Source: Escherichia coli (lineage in GTDB: Bacteria; Pseudomonadota; Gammaproteobacteria; Enterobacterales; Enterobacteriaceae). Taken from it: a DNA stretch of 64,000 bases. This document shows positions 3,913-9,070 of the stretch, piece after piece; position 1 is the first letter of the stretch; each line of letters begins with the position of its first letter. The notes beneath the pieces were generated by a model. The model worked only from the letters and a program-made list of their open reading frames with translations. It had not been told where the DNA came from and ran no database searches. Position numbers and translations under genes: made by a program. Where the stretch lies: assembly GCF_046105845.1 (NCBI RefSeq), contig NZ_CP151004.1; one strand, 5' to 3'.

Positions 3913-4532
3913 GGCACGGGCTGCTGGCGCTGATTTGCTGGCTGTGTTGTGTTGTTGCCCATAGCGAAATGCTGAATGTCGAACAATCCGGGCTGTTTCG
4001 CGCCTGGTTTGTACGCATTGCACAGGAACAGCTCCGCCAGGGGCCAAGTCCGCGCTGGTATCAGCAGGATTGTGCGGGCCTGGTGCGATTTTCGGCGAAC
4101 GAGGCGCTGAAAATTCACGACAGCAAATGGCTAAAAAGTAACGGCATAGCAAGTCAGTATTTGCCGCCTGAAATGACGCTAACACCTGAACAGCGTCAAC
4201 TGGCGCAAAACTGGAATCAGGGGAACGGAAAAACCGGCCCCTATGTGACCGCGATTAATTTGATTCAATATAACAGCCAGTTCATTGGCCAGGACATAAA
4301 CCAGGCGCTGCCTGGCGATATGATTTTTTTCGATCAGGGCGATGCCCAGCACTTAATGGTCTGGATGGGGCGTTACGTCATCTACCACACCGGAAGCGCC
4401 ACGAAAACTGACAACGGAATGCGCGCAGTCAGTCTGCAACAACTTATGACATGGAAGGACACCCGATGGATACCCAACGATTCCAATCCCAATTTCATTG
4501 GCATTTATCGTTTAAATTTTCTGGCGCGATAG
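3909..4532 (+). CDS. yfaT: DUF1175-family secreted protein (207 aa); NlpC/P60-like Cys/His motifs
   Basis: ORF track 3882..4532; ATG at 3909 overlaps the yfaA stop (ATGA); signal-peptide-like N-terminus [19 protein letters not shown]; motifs DCAGLV and GDMIFF...QHLMVW. Confidence 0.8.
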
Positions 4533-7500
4533 CAGCGTGCTTGTCCCTGTCTCTTGTGGGATCAGGGCTTGCCAATGCTGATGATTCGCTTCCTTCCAGC
4601 AACTATGCGCCGCCCGCCGGGGGAACATTCTTTTTGCTCGCTGACAGCAGTTTTAGCAGCAGTGAAGAGGCGAAAGTGCGACTGGAAGCGCCGGGGCGTG
4701 ATTATCGGCGTTATCAGATGGAAGAGTACGGCGGTGTGGACGTTCGCCTGTATCGTATTCCTGACCCGATGGCATTTTTGCGCCAGCAGAAAAATCTGCA
4801 TCGCATTGTGGTGCAACCGCAATATTTGGGCGACGGGCTGAACAATACGCTGACCTGGCTGTGGGATAACTGGTACGGCAAATCTCGCCGCGTGATGCAG
4901 CGTACTTTTTCTTCTCAGTCTCGGCAGAATGTGACTCAGGCGTTACCCGAATTACAGCTCGGCAATGCCATTATTAAACCTTCCCGTTATGTACAGAACA
5001 GCCAGTTTTCACCGCTGAAAAAATATCCACTGGTGGAACAGTTCCGTTATCCACTATGGCAGGCTAAACCGGTCGAGCCGCAGCAAGGGGTAAAACTGGA
5101 AGGTGCATCCAGCAATTTCATCTTGCCGCAGCCGGGTAACATCTATATTCCTCTCGGCAAACAAGAGCCGGGACTGTACCTCGTCGAGGCGATGGTCGGT
5201 GGATATCGGGCGACGACGGTGGTATTTGTCTCTGATACCGTGGCGCTTAGCAAAGTGTCGGGTAACGAGCTCCTGGTGTGGACCGCGGGTAAAAAACAGG
5301 GTGAAGCGAAGCCGGGATCAGAGATCTTGTGGACTGACGGTCTTGGCGTGATGACCCGCGGTGTGACCGATGACAGCGGTACCTTGCAGTTACAACATAT
5401 ATCGCCGGAACGTTCATACATTCTGGGTAAAGATGCTGAAGGCGGCGTTTTTGTCTCCGAGAATTTTTTCTACGAAAGCGAAATTTACAACACCCGCTTG
5501 TATATCTTCACCGACCGCCCTCTGTATCGCGCAGGCGATCGTGTTGATGTCAAAGTGATGGGCCGCGAGTTCCACGACCCGTTGCATTCATCCCCCATCG
5601 TTAGCGCCCCGGCGAAGCTTTCAGTGCTGGACGCCAACGGCAGTCTGTTGCAAACCATCAATGTCACGCTGGATGCGCGTAATGGCGGGCAGGGGAGTTT
5701 CCGCCTGCCAGAAAATGCCGTTGCCGGAGGTTATGAGTTACGTCTTGCTTACCGCAATCAGGTCTATAGCAGTAGTTTTCGCGTAGCCAACTATATCAAG
5801 CCACATTTCGAGATTGGTTTAGCTCTCGACAAAAAAGAGTTCAAAACTGGCGAAGCGGTCAGCGGCAAACTGCAACTGCTCTACCCGGATGGCGAGCCGG
5901 TAAAAGATGCCCGTGTGCAGTTAAGTTTGCGCGCTCAGCAATTATCAATGGTCGGTAACGATTTGCGTTATGCCGGACGTTTCCCGGTGTCGCTGGAAGG
6001 CAGTGAAACGGTTTCCGACGATAATGGTCATGTGGCGTTGAATCTCCCCGCCGCCGATAAACCGAGCCGTTATTTGTTAACCGTCTCCGCCAGTGACGGC
6101 GCGGCGTATCGAGTTACCACCACCAAAGAGATCCTCATTGAACGCGGTCTGGCGCATTACTCTTTAAGTACTGCCGCACAATACAGTAATAGCGGTGAAT
6201 CGGTTGTTTTCCGTTATGCCGCGCTGGAATCTTCAAAACAGGTTCCTGTTACGTATGAATGGTTGCGTCTCGAAGACCGCACGAGCCACAGCGGAGATCT
6301 ACCTTCTGGTGGCAAATCCTTTACCGTCAATTTCGATAAACCGGGTAACTACAATCTGACGTTACGCGATAAAGACGGCTTAATTCTCGCCGGGTTAAGC
6401 CATGCAGTCAGCGGTAAGGGCAGCACGTCGCATACTGGTACGGTAGATATCGTGGCAGATAAAACGCTGTACCAGCCTGGCGAAACCGCGAAGATGCTGA
6501 TTACCTTCCCGGAGCCAATTGATGAAGCATTATTGACGCTGGAACGCGATCGCGTTGAACAGCAGTCGCTGCTATCGCATCCGGCAAACTGGCTGACGTT
6601 ACAACGTTTAAACGATACCCAGTATGAAGCCCGCGTACCGGTGAGCAATTCCTTTGCGCCTAACATCACTTTTTCGGTGCTGTATACCCGTAACGGTCAG
6701 TACAGTTTTCAGAACGCCGGGATCAAAGTTGCCGTTCCCCAGCTGGATATTCGGGTGAAAACGGACAAAACCCATTACCAGCCTGGTGAACTGGTCAATG
6801 TCGAATTAACCTCGTCGCTGAAAGGTAAACCTGTTTCTGCGCAGCTAACGGTTGGTGTGGTCGATGAAATGATCTACGCGCTGCAACCGGAAATCGCGCC
6901 GAATATCGGCAAATTTTTCTATCCGCTGGGGCGTAACAATGTGCGTACCAGCTCCAGTCTGTCGTTTATCAGCTACGACCAGGCGCTCTCCAGCGAGCCG
7001 GTTGCGCCTGGCGCGACCAACCGCAGCGAGCGGCGAGTAAAAATGCTTGAACGTCCACGGCGTGAAGAGGTGGATACCGCGGCATGGATGCCGTCACTCA
7101 CAACCGATAAACAAGGCAAAGCGTATTTCACGTTCCTGATGCCTGATTCGTTAACCCGTTGGCGCATTACAGCCAGAGGGATGAACGGCGACGGGCTGGT
7201 CGGGCAGGGGCGTGCTTATCTTCGTTCGGAAAAAAATCTCTACATGAAGTGGAGTATGCCAACGGTGTATCGCATGGGCGACAAACCGGCAGCAGGACTG
7301 TTTATCTTCAGTCAGCAGGATAACGAACCGGTGGCGCTGGTGACTAAATTTGCAGGCGCTGAGATGCGCCAGACGCTGACGCTGCACAAAGGGGCGAATT
7401 ATATTTCGCTGACGCAGAACATTCAGCAATCTGGCTTGTTAAGCGCAGAACTGCAACAAAATGGGCAAGTGCAGGACAGCATTAGCACAAAACTGTCTTT

Positions 7501-9070
7501 TGTGGATAACAGCTGGCCCGTTGAACAGCAGAAAAATGTCATGCTCGCCGGTGGCGATAACGCGCTGATGTTGCCCGAGCAGGCGAGCAATATCCGGCTA
7601 CAAAGTAGTGAAACGCCGCAGGAGATTTTCCGTAACAATCTTGATGCGTTAGTCGATGAACCGTGGGGTGGCGTGATCAACACCGGTAGCCGTCTGATCC
7701 CGCTCAGTCTCGCCTGGCGTTCGCTTGCCGATCATCAACGTGCCGCCGCTAACGACATTCGTCAGATGATTCAGGATAACCGTCTGCGGCTGATGCAACT
7801 GGCGGGGCCCGGAGCGCGCTTTACCTGGTGGGGTGAAGATGGCAATGGCGACGCCTTCCTGACGGCATGGGCATGGTACGCCGACTGGCAGGCCAGCCAG
7901 GCGCTCGGCGTAACGCAACAACCGGAATACTGGCAACATATGCTCGACAGTTATGCCGAGCAGGCGGATAACATGCCGTTATTGCATCGGGCGCTGGTGC
8001 TGGCGTGGGCGCAGGAGATGAATCTGCCGTGCAAAACGTTGTTGAAAGGGTTGGATGAAGCTATCGCCCGGCGCGGAACTAAAACTGAAGATTTCTCTGA
8101 GGAAGACACCAGCGATATCAATGACAGCATGATCCTCGATACACCGGAATCTCCACTGGCAGATGCGGTGGCAAACGTCTTAACCATGACGTTGCTGAAA
8201 AAAGCGCAGTTGAAGTCCACTGTGATGCCACAGATTCAGCAATATGCGTGGGATAAAGCGGCAAACAGCAATCAGCCGCTGGCGCACACGGTTGTGCTGC
8301 TCAATAGCGGTGGCGACGCTACCCAGGCGGCTGCTATTTTAAGTGGTTTGACCGCTGAGCAATCCACTATTGAGCGCGCGCTGGCCATGAACTGGCTGGC
8401 GAAATATATGGCGACAATGCCTCCGGTTGTGTTGCCTGCGCCTGCGGGCGCATGGGCTAAACATAAGTTAACTGGAGGGGGCGAATACTGGCGTTGGGTT
8501 GGTCAGGGCGTGCCGGACATTCTCTCTTTTGGTGACGAATTATCGCCGCAAAATGTGCAGGTCCGCTGGCGTGAACCGGCAAAAACGGCCCAACAAAGTA
8601 ACATTCCGGTGACCGTTGAACGTCAGTTGTATCGGCTTATCCCTGGTGAAGAAGAGATGAGCTTTACTCTGCAGCCGGTGACCAGCAATGAGATTGACAG
8701 CGATGCGCTGTATCTCGATGAAATCACGCTTACCAGCGAGCAGGATGCAGTTCTGCGCTACGGTCAGGTGGAAGTACCGCTCCCGCCGGGGGCTGACGTT
8801 GAGAGAACAACGTGGGGCATTTCGGTCAATAAACCCAACGCCGCGAAACAGCAGGGGCAGTTGCTGGAAAAAGCGCGAAATGAAATGGGCGAACTGGCCT
8901 ATATGGTGCCGGTGAAAGAACTTACGGGAACGGTCACTTTCCGCCATTTGCTGCGCTTCTCGCAAAAAGGGCAATTCGTTCTGCCTCCTGCTCGTTATGT
9001 GCGTTCCTATGCACCTGCACAGCAAAGTGTTGCGGCAGGGAGTGAATGGACCGGGATGCAGGTGAAATAA
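4451..9070 (+). CDS. yfaS: Alpha-2-macroglobulin family protein, thioester-less YfaS type (1539 aa), intact
   Basis: Single uninterrupted 1539-aa ORF; Sec-type signal peptide (h-region [20 protein letters not shown] site); size and synteny match yfaS, which I recall as a pseudogene in K-12. The start could be ATG 4451 or ATG 4466. Confidence 0.88.

Follow-up and report, generated by a model that had tools for sequence, protein, structure and literature searches.

Two types of bacterial alpha-2-macroglobulin (A2M) have been described. In the type I proteins YfhM/ECAM of Escherichia coli and Sa-A2M of Salmonella, a CLEQ thioester motif is shielded by Tyr1183, Tyr1185, a Met, and a Tyr; the pocket of bacterial A2Ms consists of two tyrosines of the TED domain (Y-P-Y) and the Met and Tyr of the C-terminal domain (PMC4498604). 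Type II is represented by MagD (PA4489), encoded within magABCDEF of Pseudomonas aeruginosa. MagD lacks CXEQ, is reported to contain no cysteine at all, is unchanged by methylamine and changed by elastase, and is a periplasmic, inner-membrane-associated protein (PMC3735191). When equipped with an engineered TEV bait, it co-elutes with the protease after cleavage, held non-covalently, and it forms complexes with MagA, MagB, and MagF (PMC5764988). The whole class was described as lacking CXEQ in 2013 (PMC3735191) and 2018 (PMC5764988), which simplified a mixed state of the motif that had been noted in outline in 2012. Here, we followed up an initial annotation of yfaS, the E. coli member of the YfaS/MagD family, in a stretch of 64,000 nucleotides of E. 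coli DNA (contig NZ_CP151004.1, assembly GCF_046105845.1), hereafter called the window.

The gene and the two sites on which the analysis turns are as follows.

4451..9070, plus strand: yfaS, type II bacterial A2M without thioester; longest open reading frame 1539 amino acids, likely start ATG 4466, giving 1534 amino acids
7658..7681, plus strand: degenerate thioester site E1070-P-W-G-G1074-V-I1076-N1077, homologous to Y-P-Y-G-C-x-E-Q of ECAM and most family members
9002..9010, plus strand: R-S1519-Y, by alignment the probable counterpart of the ExMY shielding motif, with Met replaced by Ser; role of the Met and Tyr known from Sa-A2M and ECAM (PMC4498604)

The reading frame comprises 1539 codons and a stop. 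Its assignment to the A2M family was corroborated by Pfam matches above threshold to MG2, A2M_BRD, A2M, and bMG10, and by ECAM and Salmonella A2M as the best structural matches of its modeled C-terminal part. The assignment to yfaS was likewise confirmed by the flanking genes yfaA, yfaT, yfaQ, and yfaP and by matches to the yfaS locus, which were found in 5383 of the 5426 complete genomes of E. coli (best 98.7% identical, most ~96.5%). We favor, with a probability of about 0.7, the reading that YfaS is a Sec-exported periplasmic type II (MagD/YfaS) A2M of full architecture with a completely decayed thioester site, which would act as a non-covalent trap by analogy with MagD and whose thioester was lost secondarily.

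The initial annotation had stated that the translation contains no CxEQ motif and that YfaS would therefore not trap its targets covalently through a thioester. A regular-expression scan indeed returned neither C.EQ nor C..Q, and the sole C.EQ in the six frames of 4301..9200 lay in an off-frame reading interrupted by stops. Since only 0.007 to 0.06 C.EQ motifs are expected by composition, the bare absence means little, and it is the homologous position that decides. Plain sequence searching was unable to map this position, because phmmer against all PDB sequences gave only weak macroglobulin (MG)-domain matches to C5 and CD109 (E 6e-4 to 3e-3) and none to ECAM, Sa-A2M, or MagD; the PDB sequences searched included no type II A2M structure. 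BLASTP against K-12 YfhM, however, aligned YfhM YPYGCLEQTASGLFP to the YfaS segment holding EPWGGVIN, and hhalign of a profile of 30 YfaS-family C-terminal regions against YfhM yielded the same register (probability 97.2%, E 4.7e-11). At the thioester column, relatives at 33-55% identity read YP[YW]GCVEQTASRL[IL]P, so that YPYGCVEQ of the relatives stands against EPWGGVIN at residues 1070-1077 of YfaS. A Cys/Gln pair missed by eye, which would have overturned the claim, appeared neither in the alignment to YfhM, where the site maps to G1074-V-I-N1077, nor in those to the relatives. As the homologous position lacks such a pair, the thioester site is truly gone.

Replacement extended to the pocket that shields the thioester:

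Y(-4): mostly Tyr in the family, Glu1070 in YfaS
Y(-2): mostly Tyr in the family, Trp1072 in YfaS
Thioester Cys: mostly Cys in the family, Gly1074 in YfaS
Motif Glu: mostly Glu in the family, Ile1076 in YfaS
Motif Gln: mostly Gln in the family, Asn1077 in YfaS
Shielding Met of the C-terminal domain: mostly Met (R-M-Y) in the family, Ser1519 (R-S-Y) in YfaS

Tyr1520 was the only pocket residue retained. Equivalence of R-S-Y with the shielding M-Y motif is probable: hhalign aligned the isolated C-terminal domain with YfhM weakly (probability 4.5%, E 0.009), in an RMY/SMY register that agreed with the Pfam bMG10 coordinates. With none of the three residues Cys, Glu, and Gln of CxEQ left in place, the alignments demonstrate that YfaS is unable to form a Cys-Gln thioester or to bind a target covalently through one, and the second part of the earlier claim stood as well.

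When the C-terminal 589 amino acids of YfaS were searched exhaustively against 1.84 billion representatives, a compact family of 216 representatives was recovered, YfaS included. CxEQ was found in 31 of the 41 aligned sequences of at least 1300 amino acids (one of the 41 being a truncated E. coli copy), mostly as YPYGCVEQTASRLIPL. In addition, a scan of one genome per species, from which the best 80 of at least 494 loci were used, and one metagenomic contig together provided 81 loci. Among 72 sampled family members, 43 kept CxEQ within the same type of operon, and the states of the site were distributed as follows.

CVEQ, named species: P. citronellolis, P. delhiensis, P. panipatensis, P. alcaligenes, P. 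indica, P. ullengensis, P. turukhanskensis
CVEQ, further members: several other Pseudomonas, Methylobacter oryzae, a Zoogloeaceae contig
GVEQ: most other Pseudomonas
GVIN, GVVN, or GAIN: five Enterobacterales

In a neighbor-joining tree of 1505 columns, built without support values, the window, E. albertii, Superficieibacter, Edaphovirga, and Citrobacter youngae formed one clade in which all members read G[VA][IV]N. The sister group of this clade was rooted in CVEQ forms and included CVEQ-bearing Methylobacter and Pseudomonas, and at least three separate C-to-G changes fell inside Pseudomonas, with further losses elsewhere. The shielding Met was kept in 41 of 43 CxEQ members versus 4 of 29 Cys-less members (Fisher p = 5e-13, a value not corrected for phylogeny that overstates the coupling because the lineages are not independent). 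This coupling points to the CxEQ members as working thioester proteins and to the E. coli state as a derived, complete loss. Judged from these sequences, the thioester loss in E. coli YfaS is secondary, since most relatives in the same type of operon still carry CxEQ, and CxEQ with an intact pocket is the majority state of the family; the Enterobacterales clade appears to have lost the whole site and pocket once. We also consider it likely that the YfaS/MagD family was ancestrally a true thioester family that underwent many independent losses (at least three C-to-G changes in Pseudomonas, one complete decay at the root of the enterobacterial clade, and several others), each of which freed the pocket Met while the TED domain and bait machinery remained under selection. 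"Type II = no thioester" is an oversimplification. P. citronellolis and P. panipatensis carried CVEQ together with Leu at the shielding Met, as in the GVEQ sister group (P. pseudonitroreducens) and in MagD. For this lineage, it may be that the pocket changed before the cysteine was lost.

Thioester-bearing members such as those of P. citronellolis, P. alcaligenes, P. indica, Methylobacter oryzae, and Leeia aquatica shared the operon arrangement, length, and domain order of YfaS at 50-55% identity. In contrast to YfaS, they kept YPYGCVEQ and the C-terminal M-Y, because of which they are presumably covalent trappers.

Comparison with P. aeruginosa MagD gave 42% identity over the C-terminal 589 amino acids of YfaS (E 1e-146), and MagD also lacked the thioester cysteine; identity to the Pseudomonas orthologues was 51-57% (best aligned segment, near-full-length matches). 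Clusters looked up for eight Cys-less and two CVEQ representatives contained environmental and other taxa only and not MagD, which was found by a second homology search. The two proteins belong to the same family, have the same neighbors (DUF2138/MagB, DUF1175/MagC, DUF2300/MagE, and DUF2135/MagF), and share the absence of the thioester cysteine and, with the leader of YfaS judged by inspection, probably a signal peptide without lipobox (PMC3735191). They differ in the extent of the loss: MagD fragments read YPYG-GVEQ-TASQLLPL, with no cysteine in the sequenced C-terminal parts, so that in MagD (YPYG-G-V-E-Q) the Cys alone is lost, whereas in YfaS (EPWG-G-V-I-N) Cys, Glu, Gln, and both tyrosines are gone. 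Moreover, MagD has Leu and YfaS has Ser in place of the shielding Met, and the magA paralogue is missing from the five-gene operon of E. coli. YfaS fits the published description of a CXEQ-less class (PMC5764988), a feature that is not general, as shown by the 43 CxEQ-bearing members above.

With type I proteins, YfaS shares the A2M architecture and a homologous local sequence around the thioester site, and ECAM and Sa-A2M were the best structural matches to its modeled MG7-TED-CTMG part (4ziu, 4u48, and 5a42). Pairwise, YfaS and YfhM nevertheless resemble each other only marginally, with short segments reaching no more than 22-27% identity, and the shielded CLEQ of type I is missing from YfaS. 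The lipobox cysteine and the pbpC neighbor of K-12 YfhM are not found in YfaS, nor are its Pfam domains bMG1, bMG2, bMG3, bMG5, bMG6, CUB_A2MG, and TED_complement. Thus, none of the type I characters (CLEQ, lipobox cysteine, pbpC neighbor, bMG1/2/3/5/6) was present, and the Pfam-defined DUF2138, DUF1175, DUF2300, and DUF2135 neighbors are those of a type II operon. Complement C5 lacks a functional thioester. It has the A2M/C3 fold with a TED-like domain and was among the top structural and sequence matches, but this eukaryotic plasma protein of two chains is activated by convertases, does not function as a bait trap, and is only 9-10% identical.

The remaining architecture of YfaS comprised the following parts.

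4451..4579, plus strand: putative signal peptide region ending ...LANA|DD and including Cys30 (4538-4540); h-region followed by a conserved AxA
5495..5785, plus strand: MG2 macroglobulin domain, residues 349-445 (Pfam PF01835, E 2.2e-26, 92.5 bits; aligns to YfhM 388-479)
6446..6883, plus strand: bait-region domain A2M_BRD, residues 666-811 (Pfam PF07703, E 5.2e-18, 66.1 bits)
6962..7048, plus strand: probable bait segment, residues ~838-866, variable and gapped in the family alignment and followed by a conserved ERPRR[DE][DE]xDTA
7076..7324, plus strand: A2M-family MG domain, residues 876-958 (Pfam PF00207, E 3.2e-12, 46.6 bits)
7616..8407, plus strand: predicted all-helical TED fold without thioester, residues ~1056-1319 (AlphaFold2 model and Foldseek)
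8690..9016, plus strand: C-terminal macroglobulin domain bMG10, residues 1414-1522 (Pfam PF17973, E 5.5e-06, 27.0 bits, narrowly above the cut-off of 26.2; a beta domain in the AlphaFold2 model)

Residues ~838-866 probably form the bait segment, and this putative position matches that of the MagD bait between fragments 2-821 and 882-1495 (PMC5764988). No TED or thiol-ester model was matched in the Pfam scan, and the NCBIfam scan returned no family for YfaS. An AlphaFold2 model of residues 951-1539, computed on a 30-sequence alignment (mean pLDDT 85.3, pTM 0.81), showed a beta domain, an all-helical domain at residues 1056-1319 (model residues 106-369), and further beta domains. The helical domain contained 13 DSSP helices, 12 of them of at least 9 residues, and the former thioester site was placed in a loop directly before the second helix. 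Foldseek against the PDB ranked native ECAM (4ziu and 5a42) and Salmonella A2M (4u48 and 4u4j) best (E ~1e-17, TM ~0.5), followed by C5, A2ML1, CD109, C3, and TEP1. Together with the profile alignment to YfhM, the model indicates that YfaS keeps the TED fold without the thioester; it is a member of the A2M superfamily by fold, yet not a thioester-containing protein.

At the N terminus, inspection and conservation among orthologues revealed an h-region followed by AxA|DD or AxA|ED. A hydrophobic stretch ending in AxA or similar and followed by [DE][DE]xxP[AS]S.Y was present in E. albertii, Superficieibacter, Edaphovirga, Citrobacter youngae, and Pseudomonas. YfaS has exactly two cysteines, one in the signal peptide and one elsewhere, as the initial annotation had counted: Cys30 and Cys1194 (codon 8030-8032). 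The residues I-A-A before Cys30 would conform to a loosely defined lipobox; a role as lipobox cysteine was rejected as unlikely, as Cys30 lies in the middle of the h-region and is not conserved in orthologues. For the same reasons, it is most likely lost on export with a leader of the signal-peptidase-I type.

Comparison of yfaS with the E. albertii gene gave a dN/dS ratio (omega) of 0.065 at dS 0.80, with regional values of 0.037 for the N-terminal MG part, 0.039 for the bait region (residues 661-875), 0.106 for the TED domain, and 0.088 for the C-terminal domain. Thus, yfaS is under strong purifying selection in every domain. Relaxation of selection on the TED domain by thioester loss was ruled out, as TED omega was alike in Pseudomonas pairs with CVEQ (0.19-0.30, five pairs) and with GVEQ (0.08-0.29, five pairs); the TED domain therefore has a role independent of the thioester.

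In the mechanism that we propose, a protease reaching the periplasm would cut the exposed bait of YfaS at residues ~838-866. The cut would free the bait-region strand and lead to a rearrangement of domains, after which the protease would be held sterically and non-covalently by YfaS. YfaS itself would be kept at the inner membrane by a complex with YfaA (MagB-like, with one transmembrane helix) and YfaP (MagF-like). By analogy with MagD, we infer export, association with the inner membrane via the DUF2138 protein, and bait-triggered non-covalent retention. Several points weigh against this reading. Evidence for the mechanism comes from MagD and not from E. coli YfaS itself, and trapping by MagD was shown solely with the engineered TEV bait (PMC5764988). 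MagD retains G-V-E-Q and both tyrosines, all of which YfaS has lost; the two sites are thus not equivalent, and the mechanism is transferred across 42-55% identity. As E. coli has no MagA paralogue, its complex must differ. The signal peptide and the boundaries of the bait are putative, having been set by eye and alignment. Finally, yfaS is a pseudogene in K-12, with a stop at codon 1368, so that it is dispensable in the laboratory.

The initial annotation had proposed "a different mechanism or a scaffold role" for YfaS. A different mechanism agrees with the MagD experiments (PMC3735191, PMC5764988), whereas nothing specific speaks for a pure scaffold role, given that both the bait-region domain and the motifs coupled to cleavage are conserved and remain under selection. 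In its fuller form, this alternative holds that YfaS is no longer a protease trap and instead acts as a structural or scaffolding part of an envelope complex with YfaA, YfaT, YfaQ, and YfaP, for instance in peptidoglycan surveillance or remodeling. Folds related to peptidoglycan do occur in the neighbors (a weak NLPC_P60 match in YfaT and a SpoIID match in YfaQ), MagD is stably complexed with three operon partners (PMC5764988), and the purifying selection on the TED domain with or without thioester in the Pseudomonas pairs speaks for a thioester-independent TED role. However, the bait-region domain and the ERPRR[DE][DE] stretch are retained, with an omega of only 0.039 for residues 661-875, and MagD does hold protease after bait cleavage (PMC5764988). 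Scaffold and trap roles are, moreover, not mutually exclusive. We regard YfaS as rather unlikely to be a scaffold instead of a trap.

Decay of yfaS in Escherichia, with thioester loss as part of a general loss of function, is very improbable. It would account for the replacement of all thioester-related residues, and K-12 MG1655 yfaS (b4500, NC_000913.3 2329798-2334402; 96.6% identical in DNA to the window copy) carries one premature in-frame stop at codon 1368 of 1534, with no indels. Many E. coli database entries for yfaS are, in addition, C-terminal pieces of 959-1029 amino acids, named "hypothetical" or "MG2 domain-containing protein," one of which occurs on 54 contigs, a pattern suggestive of frequent splitting or truncation of yfaS, or of frequent calling of internal starts, in some E. 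coli lineages. Yet full-length reading frames occur in the window as well as in E. albertii, Superficieibacter, Edaphovirga, and C. youngae, 5362 of the 5426 E. coli genomes contain 80% or more of yfaS, and the low dN/dS against E. albertii at dS 0.80 reflects constraint on every domain. Because G-x-[IV]-N is common to an old enterobacterial clade at 53-91% identity, the protein was kept long after the thioester had been lost.

The weakest alternative, covalent binding of targets by non-thioester chemistry such as Cys1194 or an ester or isopeptide bond, has in its favor solely the one cysteine left inside the TED domain and can practically be dismissed, as Cys1194 lies 120 residues from the former thioester site, its column is Val in 51 of 72 relatives and Cys only in the window and E. 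albertii, and MagD traps non-covalently (PMC5764988) although it is cysteine-free (in the sequenced C-terminal parts, and in the whole protein according to PMC3735191).

8030..8032, plus strand: Cys1194, sole cysteine of the mature protein; column V 51, T 12, I 5, A 2, C 2 among 72 sequences

By its column, Cys1194 appears to be an incidental replacement of the family Val, and it was rejected as an alternative reactive residue.

In the window, yfaS is part of a gene order that reads gyrA (3' part), yfaA, yfaT, yfaS, yfaQ, yfaP, and then atoB-atoE-atoA-atoD-atoC on the opposite strand, the same as in NZ_AP022298 and K-12. The neighboring genes were assigned as follows.

2182..3912, plus strand: yfaA, DUF2138 protein with an N-terminal transmembrane helix (hydrophobic N-terminus), MagB counterpart (Pfam DUF2138, E 6.7e-288; NCBIfam PRK11410); the PGAP-style start probably lies near 2224
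3882..4532, plus strand: yfaT, DUF1175/NlpC-P60-like, MagC counterpart, overlapping the yfaS start (Pfam DUF1175, E 4e-58; weak NLPC_P60 match); annotated yfaT in NZ_AP022298 and K-12
9071..10720, plus strand: yfaQ, tandem DUF2300 with a SpoIID-like part, MagE counterpart (Pfam DUF2300, E 2e-90; SpoIID, 8.6e-06)
10725..11501, plus strand: yfaP, DUF2135 protein, MagF counterpart (Pfam DUF2135, E 2.2e-18)

By tblastn of the 81 related loci, YfaQ was found in 80, YfaT in 78, YfaA in 77, and a YfaP-like gene in all 81, in the same order where the flank was present. YfaQ lay downstream of the A2M gene in every locus except one that ends within the A2M gene, and the YfaA homologue lay upstream wherever that flank was covered. 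Pseudomonas and Methylobacter loci contained a second YfaP-like gene 5' of the DUF2138 gene, at the magA position; this paralogue was absent from the five enterobacterial loci. In the window, ~100 nucleotides separate the end of gyrA from yfaA (2076-2181), including a gyrA terminator-like hairpin (GGGAGCTATTTCCCTTTTTT). Since the enterobacterial loci lack a gene at the magA position and gyrA ends this close to yfaA, the E. coli operon yfaA-yfaT-yfaS-yfaQ-yfaP consists of five genes without a magA paralogue. A strong hairpin (CCCGATAGCGAAAGTTATCGGG) at 11541-11562, between the convergent yfaP and atoB, was scored as a minus-strand (atoB) terminator, and a simple terminator scan returned no separate plus-strand terminator for the yfa operon.

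The start of yfaS is likely ATG 4466 (Met6), as a Shine-Dalgarno sequence (GAAGGA) lies 6 nucleotides 5' of this codon and none precedes ATG 4451; the K-12 annotation also begins at Met6, giving 1534 amino acids. In NZ_AP022298.1, PGAP placed the start of the A2M gene at a GTG for Val36 (position 8106 there, equivalent to 4556 in the window). This is probably a misannotated start that makes the protein too short, because the export signal of a periplasmic protein would be deleted. yfaT and yfaS overlap in different frames within 4451-4532, by 67 nucleotides when counted from ATG 4466 and by 82 from ATG 4451, and the yfaS Shine-Dalgarno sequence sits within yfaT. The overlap of ~79 nucleotides and the peptide MEGHPMDT in the yfaS frame were conserved out to Pseudomonas. 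The C terminus of YfaT probably constrains the DNA and so causes this conservation, and the overlap suggests translational coupling. The window itself belongs to a sparsely sampled E. coli lineage, as over positions 1-25000 the best complete E. coli genome was ~99.0% identical across 25 kb and only 29 records reached at least 99%.

Absence of the thioester from YfaS is already covered by the 2012, 2013, and 2018 papers on its class. All three cite Budd 2004, and thioester-less members of the yfaS/magD class have reportedly been in print since 2004. With the non-covalent trapping by MagD shown in 2018, absence of the thioester from YfaS alone thus matters little. The literature search yielded nothing relevant on YfaS with a thioester or on yfaQ, yfaP, yfaT, or yfaA. 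Within the searched literature, we found no residue-level map of the loss, no coupled loss of the pocket, no single enterobacterial loss, no five-gene operon, and no experimental study of thioester-bearing YfaS/MagD members.

The useful outcome is the exact map of the loss in E. coli YfaS, which covers the motif Cys, Glu, and Gln as well as the Met and both tyrosines of the shielding pocket. In close relatives with identical operons, the thioester apparently still works, so that matched pairs are available to experimenters for measuring the contribution of covalent capture, for example, the series P. citronellolis CVEQ, P. aeruginosa GVEQ, and E. coli GVIN. The results also warn against annotating the whole YfaS/MagD family as thioester-less. 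If the thioester is indeed ancestral and was lost repeatedly, the "type II = thioester-less" of the MagD papers would fit only some lineages, and the family would constitute a natural series for learning how a thioester contributes to protease trapping in bacteria.

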